Assembly (NCBI RefSeq): GCF_003044305.1
Contig: NZ_PZOX01000005.1
Coordinates: 387,493 to 451,492, forward strand
Direction of reading: 5' to 3'
Length of the DNA stretch: 64,000 nucleotides
Source of the DNA: Vitiosangium sp. GDMCC 1.1324
GTDB taxonomy: Bacteria; Myxococcota; Myxococcia; Myxococcales; Myxococcaceae
Positions within the stretch are counted from its first letter, which is position 1. Every line of letters starts with the position of its first letter. The position numbers were made by a program, and so were the translations under genes. This document shows, one piece after another, positions 4,721-12,669 of the stretch. The notes below the pieces were generated by a model. The model did no database searches. It was given only the letters and a program-made list of their open reading frames with translations, and was not told where the DNA came from.

Positions 4721-7171
4721 ATGTGGAAGAAAACCTGGCTACTCGGCATCCTGATGGCAGCGACCGCGCTGTCTGGCTGTTCCTCCTGCGGCGACAAGCC
4801 CGGTGGGGGCGGTAATACGGTGGATGGCGGAGATGGCGGCGGCGGCTCACAAAACGATGGAGGCGGCGGCTCTACCGACGGCGGCGGCGGCTCTACCGAC
4901 GGCGGCGGCGGCGGTTCTACCGATGGCGGCGGCGGCGGTTCTACCGATGGCGGCTCCACTGACGGAGGAGGAGGCGGCAGCCCCACGCTGGGCTCCCTGA
5001 CGATTTCTCCCACCAACCCGACCCTCGCTGTCACGGGCAGCACAGGCGTCCTCCAGGCCTTCACGGTGAGGGGGACCTTCACCGACGGGCACACGGAGGA
5101 CATGACGAGCCGGTCCAGCTTCAGCATCGACGATACGCGGCTGGGCACCTTCGGCGGAGCGAGCTTCACCTCGAGCACCACCGTCGGCGGCGCCAGCACC
5201 GTGCGTGCCCGGGTGGGCACCATGTCCGTCTCCACCCCCATCACGGTGCGGCTCGACCAGAAGGTGTCGGACACGCCTCCGGCCGGCAGCACGAGCACCA
5301 CGCCCGTGCCCGCCGATCCGGGCTCGAAGTTCGGCGGCACGGTGGACACCTCGTACAAACCGCAGATCGTCTACCCCAACAATGGCGTCCTGGTGCCGCC
5401 CAACCTCGGGCAGTTGGAGATCCACTTCCTGCCGAACAACGCCTCCACCTCGCTGTTCGAGCTCGCCTTCTCCAACAGCATCACCAACGTGCGCGTGTAC
5501 ATGCGCTGCTACCTGCCGTCGGGCTTCACCCTGCCCTCGGGAGTGAGCCGCGGTTGCATCTACACGCCCGAGGACAAGGTGTGGAAGTTCCTGGCCGAGA
5601 GCAACCGTGGCGGCCAGCCGGTGAAGGTCACCGTGCGCTCCACGGACGACTCGGGTTCTGGCACGGTGGGCGTGTCCGATCCCATCGCCATCCAGTTCGC
5701 CCGCGCCGAAATCAAGGGCGCGCTCTACTACTGGACCACCTCGGGTGGCACCGGCGTGATGCGCTACGACTTCGCCGGCGGCACGGGCACGCAGACGGCC
5801 TCGCCCGTACTGAGGGCCAGCAACATCAGCACCAGCGTGAGCTGCGTGGGCTGCCACGCGCTGAGCCGCAACGGCAAGAAGCTGGTGGCCGAGGTCAATG
5901 GCCAGAACGACGGCCGGCTCGCCCTGGTGGACCTGTCCACCTTCAAGAGCACCGACAAGATCCCCCTGTCGCAGGGTGGCGTGAAGCTGAGCAACTTCGA
6001 GTCGTGGAACCCGGACGGCACCAAGTTCGTCGGCGTCTACGCCGATAGCGGCACCTCCCGCTACTCCCTGCAGATCTTCAACGGCGACACGGCGGCCTTC
6101 GAGTCGGAGATCCCCAACAGCGGCGACTCCACCAACCCCGCCAACCACCCGGACTGGAGCCCGGATGGCCAGACGATCGCCTACATGTCCATGAGCAACA
6201 TCGGCTCGAGGACGAACCAGCGCAGCTGGATGGGCACCATCAAGATGGTGACGGCGAAGACGGGCGGCGGCTGGAACGCCCCGGTGACGGTGGTGGCTCC
6301 CGAGACCTACAAGAACCGGTACTACCCGGCCATCGCGCCCGACAACTCCTTCCTCGTCTACAACGAGTCCCTCTGCGTCACCGCCGATACGGACAAGAAC
6401 TGCAACGGCGATACGGACCCGTCCGCCCGGCTGTGGGCCGCGAAGCTGCAAGCCGGCGCCCAGCGGGTGGAGCTGGCCAAGGCCAACGAGGGCGGTGTGA
6501 TGGACAAGGGCGAGACGAAGCTGACCAACAGCTACCCGAAGTGGAGCCCCTTCGTGACGCGCGGCAACTCGGGCGACACCAGCCGGCTGATGTGGGTGAC
6601 GTTCTCCTCCTCGCGCAAGTACGGCCTGCGCGTGCCCATCACCACCGGAGGCGATGAGAACCCCAGCGGCACCCTGCTGTGGATGGCGGCGGTGGATCCC
6701 GACAAGGTGAGCGCGGGAGTGGATCCGTCCTACGCGTCCTTCGCCCTGCCCTTCCAGGACCTCAGCACCTCCAACCACATCGCCCAGTGGGCCCAGTACC
6801 TCGTGAGCAACGGGTGCTCCACGGTGGGCGAGGGGTGTAACTCGAGCGGTTCCACCTGCTGCAACGGCCTGCAGTGCGTGCAGACCAGCTACGATCCGCC
6901 CATCCCCTGCGACGTGGCCGGCGCCTGCGTGTGCCAGGCCATCCCGCAGTGCGCGCCGTCGTTCGAGAAGTGCTCGTCCGTCGCGCCCTGCTGCGACGGT
7001 CTGAGCTGCGTGGATGACTCCACCGGTGGCGCGTGCAGCGGCCCCAACTGCACCTGCAAGCCGCCGTGCTCCAACGTCAACCAGCCGTGCGGCGGCGCCT
7101 CGGCCTGCTGCGACGGTCTGCGGTGCACGGATACCTCGAGCGGCAGCGTCTGCCGGATCATCATCGAGTAG
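4721..7171 (+). CDS. large lipoprotein: Gly-rich STDGGGG repeats, Ig-like domain, TolB-like beta-propeller, C-terminal Cys-rich repeats
   Basis: Lipobox LSGCSSC. Has (GGGGSTD)n, a Big-like segment LTISPTNPTLAVTGS..., and WD40/TolB-like DWSPDGQTIAY / YPKWSP motifs. Three C-terminal CCNGLQC / CCDGLSC / CCDGLRC modules. Confidence 0.8.
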   Translation: MWKKTWLLGILMAATALSGCSSCGDKPGGGGNTVDGGDGGGGSQNDGGGGSTDGGGGSTDGGGGGSTDGGGGGSTDGGSTDGGGGGSPTLGSLTISPTNPTLAVTGSTGVLQAFTVRGTFTDGHTEDMTSRSSFSIDDTRLGTFGGASFTSSTTVGGASTVRARVGTMSVSTPITVRLDQKVSDTPPAGSTSTTPVPADPGSKFGGTVDTSYKPQIVYPNNGVLVPPNLGQLEIHFLPNNASTSLFELAFSNSITNVRVYMRCYLPSGFTLPSGVSRGCIYTPEDKVWKFLAESNRGGQPVKVTVRSTDDSGSGTVGVSDPIAIQFARAEIKGALYYWTTSGGTGVMRYDFAGGTGTQTASPVLRASNISTSVSCVGCHALSRNGKKLVAEVNGQNDGRLALVDLSTFKSTDKIPLSQGGVKLSNFESWNPDGTKFVGVYADSGTSRYSLQIFNGDTAAFESEIPNSGDSTNPANHPDWSPDGQTIAYMSMSNIGSRTNQRSWMGTIKMVTAKTGGGWNAPVTVVAPETYKNRYYPAIAPDNSFLVYNESLCVTADTDKNCNGDTDPSARLWAAKLQAGAQRVELAKANEGGVMDKGETKLTNSYPKWSPFVTRGNSGDTSRLMWVTFSSSRKYGLRVPITTGGDENPSGTLLWMAAVDPDKVSAGVDPSYASFALPFQDLSTSNHIAQWAQYLVSNGCSTVGEGCNSSGSTCCNGLQCVQTSYDPPIPCDVAGACVCQAIPQCAPSFEKCSSVAPCCDGLSCVDDSTGGACSGPNCTCKPPCSNVNQPCGGASACCDGLRCTDTSSGSVCRIIIE
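4855..4966 (+). repeat. in-frame tandem nucleotide repeat (21-24 bp units) encoding (G4-5 S T D)n
   Basis: ggcggcggcggctctaccgac occurs twice, ggcggcggcggcggttctaccgat twice, plus degenerate copies. Confidence 0.8.
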
Positions 7172-7187
7172 CCGCACCCGCCGCGGC

Positions 7188-7209
7188 GGCTCCGGTCCAC
7201 GCCGGAGCC
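7188..7209. terminator. GC hairpin between convergent genes (ggctccgg-tccacg-ccggagcc)
   Basis: 8-bp perfect stem located 17 nt after the TAG of the 4721..7171 gene. No clear U-tract. Confidence 0.35.
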
Positions 7210-7222
7210 GCCCGGTGAAGTC

Positions 7223-7942
7223 TCAAGGCGACAGGACGAGGCCGTCCGCCACGCACGACTCCACCGCGGCGCGGATGTCCGCCTCGGCCACGCTGGTCGC
7301 CTCCGCCACCTGAGGCGGCGTCAGTCCCTCCACCGCCATCTTCAACGCCAGCAGCGAACGATCGTTCGCTGACAGGTACATCGTCACCAGCCGCTCGGGG
7401 TGCCGCCACAGCAGCGCCATCTCCTGCCCCGGCTCCGGTCGCGCCCTCCGCTCCTTCGCCCGTACGTACGCGCAGAGCTGGAAGGGGTGCTCCAACACCA
7501 CCAGCGTCGGGTTCACCGTCAGCCGCTCCACCTTCTCCGGCACCGGCTCCATCGACGTGTACACGGCGAAGTCCGCCCACTCGAAGCGAGCCAGCGAGGG
7601 CAGGAAGTCCGGCAGGCCGCGCCGCTCCGCCTCGTCCGCGAGGAAGCCCGGAAAGCCCTCGCCCAGGTGGTTCATCTCGTAGGGACGCGAGGGCCTGGAC
7701 GCCTCGTAGGCCCGCCCCAGTTCCGCCCACAACGCCTCGTCCACGCACGCACGCGTCAGCGGGTAGAGCTTGTCCAGCGTGGACCTGCCGTGGTGGGCCA
7801 CCATCCGGCCGTAGAGCTCCACGCGCGAGCGCGGTGCGTCCCAGCCCGGGTGCGCCGCGTACAGCCGTTCCAGTGCGTCCGGGCCCGGGGTGAGGAAGAA
7901 CTCCGTCATCGAATCGAAGAAGCCGCGCAGCCCGGGTTTCAT
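7223..7942 (-). CDS. DUF2063 domain protein, MNIO partner subunit (BufC/MbnC-like)
   Basis: LERLYAAHPGWDAPRSRVELYGRMVAHH...PYEMNHLGEGFPGFL...LPDFLPSLARFEWADF matches the DUF2063 signature. The start ATG overlaps the DUF692 stop (ATGA). Confidence 0.8.
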   Translation of the reverse strand: MKPGLRGFFDSMTEFFLTPGPDALERLYAAHPGWDAPRSRVELYGRMVAHHGRSTLDKLYPLTRACVDEALWAELGRAYEASRPSRPYEMNHLGEGFPGFLADEAERRGLPDFLPSLARFEWADFAVYTSMEPVPEKVERLTVNPTLVVLEHPFQLCAYVRAKERRARPEPGQEMALLWRHPERLVTMYLSANDRSLLALKMAVEGLTPPQVAEATSVAEADIRAAVESCVADGLVLSP

Positions 7943-8787
7943 CGCGACTCCACCTCCGCCAGCACCGCGCGAGCCCGGTCCGCCTCGTCCAGCACGGCCT
8001 CCAACGAGGGAATGTCCTGATCCCATTCGATGAGCGTCGACACCGGCCCCGTGCGCTCCAGCACGTAGCGGTACAGCGACCACACGTCGTCGCAAACCGC
8101 CGCCCCGTGCGTGTCGATGATGACGTCCGGCAGGCGCTCGTGCCCCGCCAGGTGGATCTGCACCACCCGCTCCAGCGGCAGCGCGTCCACGAAGGCCCGC
8201 GGGTCATACCCGTGGTTCTGCGAGTTCACGTACACGTTGTTCACGTCCAGCAGCAGGCCACAGTCCGCCTGCTCCGCCACGTGCCGCAGGAAGTCCGCCT
8301 CGTGCAGGGTGCCCCCCGGCATGCGCGCGTAGTAGCTCGGGTTCTCCAGCAGGAAGGGCCGGCCCACCCGCTCCTTCACCTCGCGCACCCGCGCCACCAC
8401 GTGCTCCACCGCCTCCTCCGAGAAGGGCAGCGGCAGCAGATCATAGAGGTACGCCCCGCCCAACCGCGTGTAGCACAGGTGGTCCGAGAAGAAGGGCGCG
8501 TCCACCCGCTCCACCAACGCCTTCAGCCGCGAGAGGTAGTCCTCGTCCAGCGGCTCGGGCCCGCCGATGTTCAGCGCCACCCCATGGGGCAACACCGGCC
8601 AGCGCTCCACGCACGCATCCAGCGCGCGCTGGGGACGGCCTCCGAGCGTGAGGAAGTTCTCCGGGATGATCTCCACCCAGTCCAGCGCACGGGAGGTCTC
8701 CGGGAGCTGCGCGTAGAACTCGCGCCGCAACCCGATGCCCGCTCCGAGCGGCTTCAATCCATGTCTGCGCGCGTAGCTCACTGACAC
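7939..8787 (-). CDS. DUF692/UPF0276 multinuclear non-heme iron oxidase (MNIO; MbnB/TglH/BufB family)
   Basis: LKPLGAGIGLRREFYAQL...WVEIIPENF...HGVALNIGG...FFSDHLCYTRLGG...FLLENPSYY...VQIHLAGH...DTHGAAV are TIM-barrel DUF692 hallmarks. GTG start at 8787 with a GAGGTG SD 5 nt upstream. Confidence 0.85.
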   Translation of the reverse strand: MSVSYARRHGLKPLGAGIGLRREFYAQLPETSRALDWVEIIPENFLTLGGRPQRALDACVERWPVLPHGVALNIGGPEPLDEDYLSRLKALVERVDAPFFSDHLCYTRLGGAYLYDLLPLPFSEEAVEHVVARVREVKERVGRPFLLENPSYYARMPGGTLHEADFLRHVAEQADCGLLLDVNNVYVNSQNHGYDPRAFVDALPLERVVQIHLAGHERLPDVIIDTHGAAVCDDVWSLYRYVLERTGPVSTLIEWDQDIPSLEAVLDEADRARAVLAEVESR

Positions 8788-8873
8788 GTCGGCACCTCGG
8801 GAAAAGACACGGGCGGCGGGAAGAGGCTCCCCACCGCCCGAAAGAGAACCCCGGGGATTCCGGGGGCTATCCC

Positions 8874-9128
8874 TTACTGCGGCTTGGCGGCGCCACAGCC
8901 GTCCTTGCCACAGCCGTGCTCGCTGCCCTTCTCGGAGGTGGAGGCGGCCTTGCCGCTGCACTTGGCCTCGCCGCCCTTCTCCTGGGTGGCCTCGGCGCCA
9001 CCCTTGCAGGACGCCTCGGTGCCCTTCGCCTCGGAGGTGGCGGCCGCGGGCTTCGCGGTCGCACAGCCGGTGGCCAGAGAGCCGAGGGACAGGGTACCGA
9101 CGATGGCTGCCATGGTCTTGACGTTCAT
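8874..9128 (-). CDS. small secreted Cys-containing peptide, candidate MNIO (bufferin-like) RiPP precursor
   Basis: 84 aa: MNVKTMAAIVGTLSLGSLATGCATAKPAAATSEAKGTEASCKGGAEATQEKGGEAKCSGKAASTSEKGSEHGCGKDGCGAAKPQ. Sec/lipoprotein-type signal (LATGC), then a K/E/G/A/S-rich core with three repeats carrying Cys (EASCKGG, EAKCSGK, EHGCGKDGCG). An AGGAAA SD lies 4 nt before the ATG. It sits immediately upstream of, and co-directional with, the MNIO. Confidence 0.6.
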   Translation of the reverse strand: MNVKTMAAIVGTLSLGSLATGCATAKPAAATSEAKGTEASCKGGAEATQEKGGEAKCSGKAASTSEKGSEHGCGKDGCGAAKPQ

Positions 9129-9139
9129 GGTGTTTCCTT

Positions 9140-10669
9140 TCACTGCGTGAGGGGTGGCAACTGCACGTGGCGAGGACTCCCATCGCGAGAGACGAAGGGG
9201 TCGCGGTCAGACATACGCGCTCCGAATTTCGCGGTTACAGGGCCTCGGCGCGCTCCTTCCAGGGCTTCCCGCACCTGGCTGTCACGCGCGGCACCGAGCC
9301 TCACTCCGTCCGGCCCGGGCTCCACGCCCAGCGCTTGTAACAGAGGCTCCACCCCGGCAAAAGCAGGCTGGGACAGGTGGCGCTCGAGCAACTCGTGGAA
9401 GAGCGACCGACCCGCGACGGCATCCACCGCCGCACCAAACTCGTCGAAAGTTGCGGTAGGGCCGGAACTGGCGAGCCGCTCGAGCACCTCGTCCAGGCTC
9501 CGCGTGTTGCCAGTAGCGCGGCGCAACTCCACGTCCACGAGCAGGGCGAAGAGAGCCCCCGTCCAATAGATGCCCTGGAAGGAGGCGCCGTGAGTCATGA
9601 CGTCCTCCATCGTCCGGGTGCCCACGGCGGCGCGCCCACGGGAGAAACCGGAGACCAGCTCCGCCCAGGCCTGCTCCGGCGTCTGCCTGCCTGAGCGCGC
9701 TCGCGCCAGCTCCGTGTAGTAGGTGGCCAGCCCCTCGGACAGCCAGGCGATGTGCGGCACGAAGGTGGGGTGCGCCAGGTGGAGGAGCTCGTGCACGGCC
9801 ACCCAGTCCCGCGGGAAGAACTCGGGCCCCGCCTCCTGGCCCACCAGCACGGAGACGCTCGGCGGCGAGCTCCACAGCACCATGCCGAAGACGGCGGGTG
9901 CCTGGCGTCCCGGCACTGGGATGACGCGCACGGTGATGCGTGGGTACGGGAAGTGGCGCCGCACCGTGAGCACCTCGCTCGCGGCCTGGTGGAGCCACGC
10001 GCAGAGGCCGGCGTCATCCATGCGCGACATGTGGCCGAGCACCGCCACTTCCATCACCGCGTCCGGTAGCCGCACCGTGCACCGCCGTCCGCCGAAGGCA
10101 TGGAAACCCGAGTCCACCAGATCTCCACCCTCCAGCCGGTAGACGCCGCTCGCATCCGGTTCCCACGGCAGCAGCGCGTCCACGCCCTCCACCACGAGCT
10201 CCGCGCGAAGCGAGGGCGATACCACGCGAGGGCGCAACAACCAGGCCCGGCCCGCCACATGCCACGAGTCCCCTTCGCCCATGCCGGAGGAGAAGTCCGG
10301 GCGCGCCCCCCGGACGCGAGCCTCCAAGGGATAGCGGTAACGCAACAGGCGCGTGTCCCGCGGGACGAGGACGCGGCCCTCCGGAGACACGGACAGCTCG
10401 TGGCCGGAACCTTCCGGGCCGAAGACACGCACCCGGTCGACTCCGCCAGGTTGGGTGAAGAGGAAGTCCCGGGGGGCATTCTCACCAACGAGGACGAGCT
10501 CCACGTCCAGCGCATGCACCGGCTCGCGGACATAGGTGACGCGGTAGCGCAGCGCCGTCGGATCCTCGCCCGGCCGAAGCGGAAGCGTCCGAGCCGGCTG
10601 GCACGCCCCCAACACCAACAGCAGGGACACCCGTACCGCGAAGGAGAGGACCGGCCTGGATGAAGGCAT
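9140..10669 (-). CDS. HExxH zinc metalloprotease lipoprotein (MA-clan, M61/aminopeptidase-like)
   Basis: Lipobox LLLVLGAC and HELLHLAHP...EGLATYY (HExxH + downstream Glu). Its stop is 11 nt upstream of the precursor ORF. The start coordinate follows the ORF-track frame. Confidence 0.65.
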   Translation of the reverse strand: MPSSRPVLSFAVRVSLLLVLGACQPARTLPLRPGEDPTALRYRVTYVREPVHALDVELVLVGENAPRDFLFTQPGGVDRVRVFGPEGSGHELSVSPEGRVLVPRDTRLLRYRYPLEARVRGARPDFSSGMGEGDSWHVAGRAWLLRPRVVSPSLRAELVVEGVDALLPWEPDASGVYRLEGGDLVDSGFHAFGGRRCTVRLPDAVMEVAVLGHMSRMDDAGLCAWLHQAASEVLTVRRHFPYPRITVRVIPVPGRQAPAVFGMVLWSSPPSVSVLVGQEAGPEFFPRDWVAVHELLHLAHPTFVPHIAWLSEGLATYYTELARARSGRQTPEQAWAELVSGFSRGRAAVGTRTMEDVMTHGASFQGIYWTGALFALLVDVELRRATGNTRSLDEVLERLASSGPTATFDEFGAAVDAVAGRSLFHELLERHLSQPAFAGVEPLLQALGVEPGPDGVRLGAARDSQVREALEGARRGPVTAKFGARMSDRDPFVSRDGSPRHVQLPPLTQ

Positions 10670-11106
10670 CACGCACCCCGCTGCCCGCAGAAACCCGGAC
10701 ACTCTATCGGCGCACTCATGGTGTGGCCGGGAGACGAATCGTGAGGTCACTCCCCTGCCCCCAGACCGGCAAGGCCACCGATCACCTTCCGGGTCTCTCC
10801 TCAACGGACTCGCCGCCCCCCGATTCCCCACCCCGTTGCTGGTAAACCGTAGCGGTAAAACTTTGACAGACCTTCTAGGGCATGGCCCGACAGGTCGCAG
10901 AGCTGTCCACCAAGCATTGTGAAATCAAACGGTTAGCCACTTCAGGACGGGTGGGGACGATCACCAGGCCCTCCCTCCGTTCCGTTGAGGACAGGGGCGG
11001 TTGCGCTCGAAAACGTTTATTGCAAATCGGTAAATGCCTCCGCACAGTGGCGTGTCGGAGGGGCCGGGTACTGGGGTAGAGGACCCCCCATCCAGGAAGC
11101 GCGGAG

Positions 11107-12669
11107 ATGAACGAGAACGCACTCAACGCGAACGTGGGCCTGAAGCTGCGCAGCCTGAGACTCGCGCGGAACATCAAGCAGACGGACGCGGCCAAGGACC
11201 TGGGAGTCTCCCCGGCGTACCTGAACCTCATCGAGAAGGGCAAGCGGGTCATGCCCTTCCCGCTGCTGTGGAAGGCCCTGCGCTACTTCGACCAGGACCC
11301 CGAGCAGTTCATGTCCACGCTGGGCGAGGGCCGGGTGGACGAGGCGCTCGCGAAGCTGCTGGACGAGCCGCTGCTCAAGAGCCTCGACATCGATCCGGAG
11401 TCGCTGCAGAGCCTGTCGGCGGAGCCGAAGCTGGCGGGCACGGTGGCGGCGCTCTTCAACCTCTACAAGAACACGCGCACGCAACTGGAGAACGTGCTGG
11501 CGCAGCTCAACGCCGAGGAGCGGGCGCGCACGCAGTCGGTGCCGGGCAGCTCGGCGGGGCCGGGCCTGCGCTTCGACTACTCGCCCTTCGACGAGGTGAG
11601 TGACTTCCTGCAGTCGCACCACAACTACTTCCCCGAGCTGGAGGAGCAGGCCGAGGCGCTGCGGCGCGACTTCAAGCTGGGGCGCCTGCTCACCAGCCCG
11701 CAGTTGGTGCCGCTGCTGGAGGAGCGCTTCGGCTACCGCGTGCGCTTCGAGTCCGCGGTCAGCGGCTCCTCGGTGGTGCGCCGGTTCGATCCCGAGTCCC
11801 AGGAGCTCATCCTCTCGCCGGACCTGATGGAGCAGCCGCTCAAGTTCCAGCTCGCGACGTCCATCGGCCTGCTGGTGCTGGACCGGGAGAAGCTGGTGGA
11901 GCGCATCGTCGGTGCGGCGCGCACGCGGCACGCGGAGACGCTGCGCCTCATCAAGGTGAACCTGGCCAACTACTTCGCCGGCGCGCTGATGCTGCCCTAC
12001 GGGGACTTCTTCAAGGAGGTGGAGCGCACGCGCTACGACGTGGAGCTGCTCTCCAACCTCTTCGGCACCACGTACGAGACGGTGGCCCACCGGCTGTGCA
12101 ACCTGTCGGACCCCAAGCGCAAGGGCCTGCCCTTCCACTTCCTGCGCTCGGACATCGCCGGCAACATCTCCAAGCGCTACAGCGGCACCGGCATCAAGTT
12201 CGCCACGGGCGGCGGCTCATGCGGCAAGTGGGCCGTGCACCTGGCCTTCCTCAACCCGTCCCAGCTCACCCGGCAGTATTCGATGATGCCGGACGGCACC
12301 TCGTACTTCTGCTTCGCGAAGGTGCAGCTGCAGCCGATTGAAGGCTCCATCGTGCGCGGCACGGCGTACTCCATCGGCCTGGGCACGCACGCGGAGAACG
12401 CCAAGTACCTGGCGTACGGCCTGCCCACCACGGATCTGCGCAAGGACGCGGTGCCCAGCGGCATCTCCTGCCGCTTCTGCGAGCGCACCGACTGCAACCA
12501 GCGCGCGGCCGCCAGCTACCGCTTCGCCTTCTCCTTCGACGAGTACACCAAGAAGGATTGCTTCTTCTCGCCCCTGCTCGTCCACGAGGCCGGCCGGGGT
12601 GGCGATCACCTGCGTGCGGATTCGCTGGACAAGCAGCCGCGCCGACGCAACAAGGGCGAGGAACACTGA
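11107..12669 (+). CDS. XRE-family transcriptional regulator, COG3800-type (HTH + ImmA/IrrE-like + DUF2083)
   Basis: N-terminal HTH (LRSLRLARNIKQTDAAKDLGVSPAYLNLIEKGKR) and a C-terminal region with CxxC...CxxC (CGKW...CRFCERTDC). Confidence 0.8.
   Translation: MNENALNANVGLKLRSLRLARNIKQTDAAKDLGVSPAYLNLIEKGKRVMPFPLLWKALRYFDQDPEQFMSTLGEGRVDEALAKLLDEPLLKSLDIDPESLQSLSAEPKLAGTVAALFNLYKNTRTQLENVLAQLNAEERARTQSVPGSSAGPGLRFDYSPFDEVSDFLQSHHNYFPELEEQAEALRRDFKLGRLLTSPQLVPLLEERFGYRVRFESAVSGSSVVRRFDPESQELILSPDLMEQPLKFQLATSIGLLVLDREKLVERIVGAARTRHAETLRLIKVNLANYFAGALMLPYGDFFKEVERTRYDVELLSNLFGTTYETVAHRLCNLSDPKRKGLPFHFLRSDIAGNISKRYSGTGIKFATGGGSCGKWAVHLAFLNPSQLTRQYSMMPDGTSYFCFAKVQLQPIEGSIVRGTAYSIGLGTHAENAKYLAYGLPTTDLRKDAVPSGISCRFCERTDCNQRAAASYRFAFSFDEYTKKDCFFSPLLVHEAGRGGDHLRADSLDKQPRRRNKGEEH

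Follow-up and report, generated by a model that had tools for sequence, protein, structure and literature searches.

Clusters that pair an MNIO (DUF692) enzyme with a PME1-type partner are among the commonest pathways to peptides that are made by ribosomes and modified after translation (RiPPs), with more than 24,000 loci, and have been tied to copper and to oxidative stress. The closest described systems to the locus reported here are the captophorins or bufferins, namely Caulobacter BufABC, HvfABC of H. influenzae (oxazolin) and FonABC (fontiphorin), in which precursor, MNIO and partner genes follow one another in the same A-B-C order (PMC11626156; PMC11252979; PMC13097082; PMC12452194). All characterized MNIO-PME1 pairs install 5-thiooxazoles and give copper-binding products (PMC13097082; PMC11626156), the substrates in fontiphorin and oxazolin being EGKCG repeats, according to a study of fontiphorin, gonophorin and the revised oxazolin structure (PMC13097082). 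Here we analyse a 64,000-nucleotide stretch of Vitiosangium sp. GDMCC 1.1324 (contig NZ_PZOX01000005.1; hereafter the window, with a G+C content of ~70%), in which four minus-strand genes encode an M61-like HExxH lipoprotein peptidase, an 84-residue Cys-containing precursor, an MNIO and a DUF2063/PME1-type partner. An earlier note on this DNA had placed the four open reading frames (ORFs) correctly, and its core reading was upheld: an MNIO/DUF2063 pair, immediately preceded by a Cys precursor and linked to an HExxH peptidase. On balance we think it fairly probable that the locus is a captophorin/bufferin-type RiPP cluster making a lipid-anchored peptide metallophore; within that model our confidence is high for the RiPP identity and roughly even for the role of the peptidase.

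The peptide, MNIO and partner genes and the systems they resemble

Three features of captophorin/bufferin MNIO-PME1 clusters are found at the locus: an MNIO of the BufB/HvfB group, a DUF2063 partner with a domain resembling a RiPP recognition element (RRE), and an upstream Cys precursor with a Sec-type signal. The MNIO matches PF05114 (DUF692) with E=9e-107, as the earlier note had anticipated, and scores 331 bits against the NCBIfam model BufB (cut-off 310), 304 against HvfB (cut-off 360) and 57.7 against MbnB (cut-off 325). Its closest PDB entry is 3BWW, an HvfB-type protein of Histophilus somni (E=3e-62), with which the HG, SDHL, EN, DVNN, HLAGH, DTHG and EWD motifs align. Because the MNIO passes the BufB equivalog cut-off, the locus belongs to the well-populated captophorin/bufferin class, of which it is a variant; it is not a divergent new system, as had been proposed. 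The partner likewise proved to be a DUF2063 protein (PF09836, 43.8 bits against a cut-off of 27.2), with a weaker match to NCBIfam HvfC (E=3e-14, 53.5 bits against a cut-off of 142) and homologues named ‘HvfC/BufC N-terminal domain-containing protein’. Its AlphaFold2 model (mean predicted local distance difference test score, pLDDT, of 90) comprises a helical domain at the N-terminus and, at the C-terminus, an RRE-like winged helix of three strands and three helices, and the top Foldseek matches are 3DEE, the PME1 of N. gonorrhoeae (E=7e-7, template modelling scores 0.60/0.70), and then TglI (8hci_A), with MbnC a weak structural match (E=0.38). The MNIO stop codon and the partner start codon overlap as ATGA, as first noticed in the earlier reading, and the two genes are translationally coupled through this overlap.

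The 84-residue precursor reads MNVKTMAAIVGTLSLGSLATG-C22-ATAKPAAATSEAKGTEASCKGGAEATQEKGGEAKCSGKAASTSEKGSEHGCGKDGCGAAKPQ, and NCBI annotates an identical protein in Vitiosangium sp. GDMCC 1.1324, as it does for the 509-residue peptidase (100% identity in both cases). It had been described as secreted; the signal is indeed of the exported type, and is more exactly a lipoprotein signal (SLATG-C22), making the precursor a predicted lipoprotein that by homology would be lipidated on Cys22. The middle of the peptide is of low complexity and comprises three repeats of ~16 residues, each with (E/Q/A)KGxE-x-x-C, which are visible at the protein level only, Tandem Repeats Finder having detected no DNA-level repeat in the gene. 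No Pfam or NCBIfam family matched the precursor even at E up to 10, consistent with the earlier statement that it lies outside DUF2282, and an entericidin B match to the signal peptide in this search was dismissed as chance. We found 47 homologues, several of which UniProt names ‘Lipoprotein’ and others of which are labelled ‘uncharacterized low-complexity protein’; of 1.84 billion representative clusters a family profile picks out only 31, so that the family is a narrow one.

When 27 homologues are aligned, 13 columns are invariant and 12 of them fall within residues 1-23, those of L18, A19, G21 and C22 included; C73, G74 and C78 are nearly invariant. Cys22 does not vary in any of 47 coding sequences, and the residues of the signal peptide are fixed while their codons vary synonymously (four codons each for Ala7 and Ala8, three each for Gly11, Leu15 and Gly21), and therefore selection acts on the protein. 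In contrast, the signal peptide of the peptidase is poorly conserved. The near invariance of the precursor signal peptide extends across genera (46 related loci), where it is rich in A/T-ending codons (GCT, CTT, GTT, TGT, GGT) that stand out in a 70% G+C genome. This segment may serve as a leader for the PME1 partner or as a translation-initiation feature.

Repeat number varies within the family and members carry two to five Cys outside the lipobox, four in the window peptide. All 47 full-length members have a C-terminal C-x4-C, extended to C-x4-C-x4-C in 18, and judging from this conservation it is the most likely site of MNIO modification. The consensus around all 170 non-lipobox Cys of the family is G-(G/A)-(E/A)-G-S-C-G-(A/G)-G, and its EGSCG core is a one-residue variant, with the same five-residue period, of the EGKCG of oxazolin and fontiphorin. 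No exact EGKCG occurs in the window peptide; one orthologue (L029) has it three times and reads EGKCGEGKCGEGKCG.

The substrate-facing residues of the MNIO can be compared with those of FonB. Positions equivalent to FonB R15/R16 are Arg-Arg and those equivalent to D249/F250 are Asp-Gln, with the catalytic Asp kept; among 54 MNIOs from related loci, 47 have the Arg-Arg pair and 50 have Asp-Gln. Arg16 of FonB has been proposed to pair with Glu at position 1 of the repeat (Gadgil et al., PMC13097082), and Phe250 marks a selectivity site that is Phe in Lys-Cys enzymes and Asp in Cys-Lys enzymes (PMC13097082). The Arg-Arg/Asp-Gln combination is in keeping with a substrate that carries Glu in position 1 and, ahead of the Cys, Ser or Gly in place of Lys. 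Because the structure of oxazolin has been revised (PMC13097082), the predicted product is a 5-thiooxazole and not an oxazolone-thioamide.

Between precursor and MNIO genes lies a spacer of 86 nucleotides, from the peptide stop (8874) to the MNIO start (8787), which folds at -50.5 kcal/mol (z=-2.6). A GGGCGG...GCCGCCC hairpin is found at this place in 42 of 45 related loci, followed in most by a T-rich tail; the consensus fold has 12 pairs, three with compensatory changes and one more alternating U-G/C-G, and a small covariation term (-0.35). Given the conservation in 42 of 45 loci together with some compensatory changes, we rejected the view that the hairpin is a mere artefact of G+C content. 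Hairpins that raise precursor over enzyme transcript are common in RiPP operons, and this one is probably a partial terminator or stabilizer with the same effect.

Compared with captophorins, the locus shares a Cys motif of five-residue period (x-G-x-C-G), a Sec-signal precursor, an MNIO like 3BWW and a partner like 3DEE, and differs in having a lipoprotein signal, an EGSCG consensus with only two or three C-terminal repeats, an M61-like peptidase and, in relatives, also a YceI-like protein, in lacking DoxX and a sigma/anti-sigma pair, and in its occurrence in Myxococcota instead of Pseudomonadota. The absence of a DoxX gene from the cluster had been noted before, and we additionally found no copper-resistance gene in the operon. 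Buf1 precursors carry four conserved Cys in a folded DUF2282 domain, for which the window peptide gives no match at E up to 10; Buf2 precursors carry six or twelve Cys in CKGxNxCKGxGxC-type motifs, and the window peptide has four post-lipobox Cys, with that motif absent from the alignment. Relative to the Buf_EGKCG/oxazolin group the locus is borderline: the MNIO has the Arg-Arg pair typical of Lys-Cys-group enzymes, exact EGKCG is missing, the HvfB score stays under its cut-off and Gln occupies the Phe250 site. The methanobactin system MbnABC resembles it in an MNIO and a partner acting on peptide Cys to yield a copper-binding heterocycle with a sulfur ligand; here, however, a Sec/lipoprotein signal takes the place of the cleaved leader, and MbnT, MbnE and MbnN genes are absent. 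Of the label “bufferin/methanobactin-like” in the earlier note the first half thus holds, by the BufB score, and the second is ruled out by the MbnB score and by a partner fold like that of PME1 and TglI, not MbnC.

Lipid-anchored MNIO products have been described as DAG-RiPPs, of which DybA and NedA have in common with the window peptide an MNIO-modified precursor with a lipobox signal and a predicted lipidation by housekeeping enzymes after cytoplasmic modification; DybA has a ChrH-type MNIO and different chemistry, NedA has canonical EGKCG repeats, and lipidation of both was shown experimentally (PMC13056109). The same paper defines a ‘Cluster X’ with a lipoprotein signal and a conserved CxxxxC, which the window family matches by description, and mentions no M61 peptidase, only a prolyl oligopeptidase in one Spirosoma cluster (PMC13056109). 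A ‘CxxxxC’ family of 76 proteins is also alike by description, having a signal peptide and a conserved CxxxxC beside MNIO and DUF2063 genes, although its clusters contain DoxX and, in 54%, Lactamase_B_2, neither of which is in the window (PMC12452194). The precursor type had already been flagged bioinformatically as an uncharacterized group (PMC13056109; PMC12452194), and the earlier description of the locus as uncharacterized applies in the sense that the literature searched holds no characterized member of the precursor family. Stigmatella aurantiaca, in whose genome the partner protein has an orthologue, is listed with three MNIOs, one DUF2063 protein and zero matches to Buf1, Buf2 or Buf_EGKCG in a table without a CxxxxC column (PMC12452194, Table S2), which suggests that those three profiles miss the family of the window peptide.

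The M61-like peptidase and its linkage to the cassette

As the earlier note had stated, the first gene encodes an HExxH lipoprotein, with HELLH at residues 293-297, the third zinc ligand E312 and a lipobox-like VLGAC ending at C23; H293, E294, H297 and E312 are invariant, and C23 at least 90% conserved, among 24 orthologues. Its Pfam Peptidase_M61 match is below threshold (E=0.003, 18.3 bits, cut-off 22), the PDB sequence match to the M61 enzyme 8J9C covers the WLSEGLATYY helix alone, and a PDB profile search with the peptidase alignment aligned only the helix carrying the third zinc ligand. The AlphaFold2 model (pLDDT 84, predicted template modelling score 0.79) shows a two-domain gluzincin fold, an N-terminal beta domain followed by a thermolysin-like domain with HExxH...E, for which Foldseek returned the Myxococcus fulvus M61 enzyme 7XYO first (E=1e-19), then 8J9C and 4FGM, with the M1 family next. 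Identity to M61 structures is 15-20%, and on the strength of the model the peptidase is best called M61-like. M61 enzymes are commonly described with a C-terminal PDZ domain; no PDZ match was obtained for the window peptidase, whose model ends after the helical domain. It shares the gluzincin fold and HExxH...E with the M61 glycyl aminopeptidases 7XYO and 8J9C, and differs from them as a predicted lipoprotein without PDZ. About 30 residues before HExxH is an invariant FGMxxWS strand where, judged by spacing alone, M1 enzymes carry GxMEN; it lacks the Glu that binds the free N-terminus, and the peptidase may therefore not be an aminopeptidase.

The four genes had been said to lie within 11 nucleotides of each other, which is true of the gap between peptidase and peptide genes and not of the 86-nucleotide peptide-MNIO spacer. 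The short junction arises because the peptidase has a disordered C-terminal extension of 36 residues (pLDDT below 50), seen only here and in an Archangium violaceum orthologue. Since this tail is lineage-specific, the tight junction is a local feature. In locus L001 the DNA at this place matches in another frame, which suggests that the stop codon has shifted recently and thereby reduced the spacer to 11 nucleotides. The evidence that truly links the peptidase to the cluster is thus comparative and not a matter of spacing, and on that comparative footing the link put forward earlier is supported.

For this comparison one genome per species was scanned with a profile of the peptidase; 80 loci were kept, and the ORFs in all six frames of each were searched with the four proteins of the cluster. 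Each of the 42 Myxococcaceae/Archangiaceae loci whose flanking sequence suffices, from Archangium, Myxococcus (including M. xanthus), Corallococcus, Pyxidicoccus, Hyalangium, Citreicoccus and other genera, has peptidase, peptide, MNIO and partner genes in that order on one strand. A YceI-like gene lies between peptidase and peptide in 20 loci, encoding a secreted protein of ~210 residues (PF04264, E=5e-19; examples at L014:7426-8061 and L022:7497-8129); neither such a gene nor a second MNIO locus was found in the window. The peptidase-peptide spacer in other genera measures 53-214 nucleotides, or ~730-830 where the YceI-like gene is inside. Lipids or isoprenoids are the ligands of YceI proteins, a property that could matter where the peptide is lipidated.

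The linkage extends to loci of other arrangement. Five Sandaracinaceae-type loci (L056, L061, L065, L068, L074) have the order lipoprotein peptide, MNIO, DUF2063 and M61-like peptidase, followed in three (L061, L065, L074) by a YceI-like gene (in L074 at 7230-7910), and their precursors end in SCGGAGGCGG, SSCGAGSCGG, EASCGAGSCGG or EGSCGENSCS. Four more distant loci combine an M61-like peptidase with a lipoprotein peptide (L053:6640-6882, L054:2845-3057, L078:5234-5566, L080:4326-4598) and an MNIO, with other Cys motifs in the precursor: four GSCGGKD, three EQKCPG or, in L078 and L080, a Buf2-like CKGQNxCKGQGxCK. The MNIOs of L078 and L080 have Arg-Thr at the FonB R15/R16 positions and Asp-Ala at D249/F250. 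In every case, 56 of 56 precursors counting the window and 55 related loci, the peptide beside an M61-like/MNIO pair has a lipobox, a feature of only ~16% of Buf2 bufferins (PMC12452194). A neighbour-joining tree places MNIO-linked peptidases on three branches, and relatives from Polyangium and from beta- and gammaproteobacteria have no MNIO nearby.

The association between peptidase and cassette is one-way. A paralogous locus of Archangium violaceum (L081; CP069338.1, 7768211-7780495) encodes a lipoprotein peptide of 94 residues ending GGCGENSCAGGR, an MNIO and an HvfC_N protein, with a peptide-MNIO gap of 20 nucleotides and no M61-like gene. Immediately upstream of this cassette are type VI secretion genes (TssF, TssG, VgrG, DUF4280) and genes for a ricin-lectin protein and an unannotated 279-residue protein. 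The literature searched does not combine M61 with MNIO, DUF692 or bufferin and does not cover the M. xanthus orthologues, and the link between this peptidase type and MNIO clusters looks unreported so far.

A possible route to an anchored metallophore and the alternatives

The analysis itself shows what the genes are, which folds and conserved motifs their products have and how the genes are linked; by homology with the characterized systems, the chemistry, the lipidation, the metal and the substrate of the peptidase would be as follows. The complex of MNIO and PME1 (DUF2063) partner would bind the 84-residue precursor in the cytoplasm and oxidize Cys to 5-thiooxazole, with a loss of 4 Da each, at both Cys of CGKDGCG at least and probably also at C41 and C57. 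The modified peptide would be exported via Sec, and Lgt, LspA and Lnt would lipidate Cys22 and remove the signal peptide, leaving a flexible lipopeptide of ~62 residues on the periplasm-facing membrane, where it may bind Cu(I)/Cu(II) or another soft metal. The M61-like lipoprotein peptidase would then cut the tethered Gly/Ala-rich peptide, either releasing or trimming its thiooxazole-bearing C-terminal part or turning it over. That the peptidase probably processes the anchored peptide is suggested by the gene linkage and by the correlation with the lipobox. An M1-type zinc peptidase with both endo- and aminopeptidase activity, AplP, acts on class III lanthipeptides and provides a precedent for RiPP processing.

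Several observations weigh against this proposal. The precursor family is known from sequence alone, and none of the curated precursor models for bufferins or oxazolin recognizes the peptide; the MNIO is below the HvfB cut-off and the partner below that of HvfC, and the Gln at the FonB Phe250 site is neither Phe nor Asp, so that substrate handling may differ. M61 enzymes are usually aminopeptidases, and an N-acylated lipopeptide offers no free N-terminus; with the lipidated end blocked, the peptidase would have to act as an endopeptidase, or another cut would have to precede. As to the linkage, for about two-thirds of the more distantly related M61-like proteins no MNIO lies within 6 kb, and the A. 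violaceum paralogous cassette has no neighbouring peptidase. A RamB-like regulator and a TPR gene are also kept nearby in Myxococcaceae, and given such broad synteny conservation within the family is by itself no proof that the peptidase is functionally linked.

A bolder version of the proposal is that the M61-like peptidase, with YceI in many relatives, defines an undescribed maturation branch of thiooxazole metallophores, in which the peptide is modified, anchored by way of the housekeeping lipoprotein pathway and cut at a defined site, and then released as a small, diffusible bis-thiooxazole peptide or shed into vesicles or the medium. We advance this only tentatively and think it more apt to be wrong than right. 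The defined cleavage site would plausibly lie in the conserved EKG-x-E segment.

Other accounts of the locus were weighed against an anchored peptide processed by the peptidase. It is unlikely, if still a serious competitor, that the peptidase belongs with the cluster without being a maturation enzyme, and degrades unmodified, excess or metal-loaded lipopeptide or, instead of acting on the peptide as a protease, takes part in the handling of zinc or copper. Exopeptidase activity, typical of M61 and M1 enzymes, suits degradation, bufferins need no dedicated protease, Sec and signal peptidase being sufficient (PMC11626156), and copper-loaded EGKCG peptides aggregate (PMC13097082), so that clearance could be useful; against this, the position of the EKG-x-E segment just before the C-x4-C core would suit a defined cut, an argument that is only suggestive.

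We hold it rather improbable that the peptidase is a mere syntenic neighbour, engaged in unrelated periplasmic proteolysis beside a self-contained three-gene cassette of peptide, MNIO and partner. The breadth of Myxococcaceae synteny, the many distant peptidases without an adjacent MNIO, the cassette of A. violaceum and the lineage-specific spacing in the window would all fit, but the same four genes recur in another order in the Sandaracinaceae-type loci, with a YceI-like gene after three of them, the pairing returns in divergent metagenome-assembled genomes with different precursor core motifs, and a lipobox is present in every precursor beside such a peptidase.

We have similar doubts about an MNIO that installs a modification other than 5-thiooxazole, or a product whose role is not in copper binding (but in redox buffering, in predation or with another metal). 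MNIOs are known for many different reactions (PMC12452194; PMC13056109), and the Gln at the Phe250 site, the Ser or Gly that stands ahead of the Cys in place of Lys, the lack of copper-resistance, DoxX and sigma/anti-sigma genes in the operon and the setting of the paralogous locus beside type VI secretion genes leave room for such a function. However, the MNIO passes the BufB cut-off, MNIOs that accompany Buf1, Buf2 and EGKCG precursors fall into a single tight group by similarity (PMC12452194), the characterized members of the class all make 5-thiooxazoles, and FonBC tolerates several non-Lys 5-mers (PMC13097082). That the small ORF is an ordinary unmodified Cys-rich lipoprotein or no gene, with the MNIO substrate elsewhere, is very improbable: low complexity, which is also how homologues are labelled, and the lack of a matching family model speak for it, yet the ORF is conserved, as had been required of it (47 homologous proteins, 47 related loci), its place is always immediately upstream of the MNIO, it is under selection as a protein, its C-x4-C is invariant, and the cluster holds no other conserved small ORF with Cys.

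Locus map, flanking genes and significance

The features of the cluster and its flanks are collected in Table 1. On one side the cluster meets a convergent gene for an 816-residue predicted lipoprotein (LSGC) with N-terminal GGGGSTD repeats, a weak PD40/TolB-like propeller match and three C-terminal Cys-rich modules (CCNGLQC, CCDGLSC, CCDGLRC), which is syntenic only in the Archangium-type loci L001-L008. The G+C-rich inverted repeat between the two stop codons, GGGCGGCTCCGG...CCGGAGCCGCC, lacks a T-tract; it may terminate transcription in both directions. On the other side is a divergent RamB/ScfR-like regulator with HTH_3, Peptidase_M78/IrrE and ScfRs domains (NCBIfam RamB, E=2e-89, below cut-off), which lies upstream of the peptidase gene in nearly all Myxococcaceae/Archangiaceae loci, adjacent or ~3 kb away; this is a conserved position only and implies no regulatory role. 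A sigma-70 promoter scan of positions 7000-11300 found nothing, a result of little meaning for a myxobacterium.

Table 1. Positions of cluster features and flanking elements in the window
Feature	Position	Strand	Details
Convergent lipoprotein gene	4721-7171	plus	816 aa
Inverted repeat	7185-7213		between partner stop and convergent gene stop
DUF2063/PME1-type partner	7223-7942	minus	239 aa
MNIO (DUF692)	7939-8787	minus	282 aa; GTG start, GAGG before start
Terminator-like/attenuator hairpin, precursor-MNIO gap	8800-8840	minus	14-bp G+C-rich stem 8810-8840, then TGTCTTTTCC (terminator scan)
Second small hairpin	8849-8865	minus	
Precursor Cys peptide	8874-9128	minus	84 aa
C-terminal CGKDGC (C-x4-C) core	8895-8912	minus	sole Cys motif kept family-wide
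Candidate modification site C78	8895-8897	minus	
Candidate modification site C73	8910-8912	minus	
Candidate modification site C57	8958-8960	minus	
Candidate modification site C41	9006-9008	minus	
Precursor lipobox Cys22 codon	9063-9065	minus	lipobox LATGC
Precursor lipoprotein signal peptide	9063-9128	minus	residues 1-21, span includes Cys22 codon
Spacer, peptidase-precursor	9129-9139	minus	11 nt; AAGGA ribosome-binding site of precursor gene, read from sequence
M61-like HExxH lipoprotein peptidase	9140-10669	minus	509 aa
Peptidase disordered lineage-specific tail	9140-9247	minus	residues 474-509
Peptidase third zinc ligand E312	9734-9736	minus	
Peptidase HELLH	9779-9793	minus	residues 293-297
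Peptidase lipobox Cys23 codon	10601-10603	minus	
RamB/ScfR-like regulator	11107-12669	plus	

Whether EGKCG products work uncut or after proteolysis was left unsettled by the study of fontiphorin (PMC13097082), and what lipid anchoring contributes to MNIO products is a question in the recent literature (PMC13056109). The family described here is a compact natural test case for both, with a short precursor, two to five target Cys, an obligatory lipobox and a zinc peptidase encoded in the cluster, all within reach in the tractable Myxococcus xanthus. Its specific value lies in the conserved peptidase, joined by YceI in relatives, in how strictly that peptidase goes with lipobox precursors and in its presence in M. 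xanthus. Should the peptidase not process the peptide, the locus would simply add another bufferin-type cluster, in a setting that is new at the level of the phylum. If the anchored peptide is indeed its substrate, the class would gain its first dedicated protease and an example of how a membrane-tethered RiPP is set free, and release at a defined site, if true, would answer whether EGKCG-type products act whole or as fragments.

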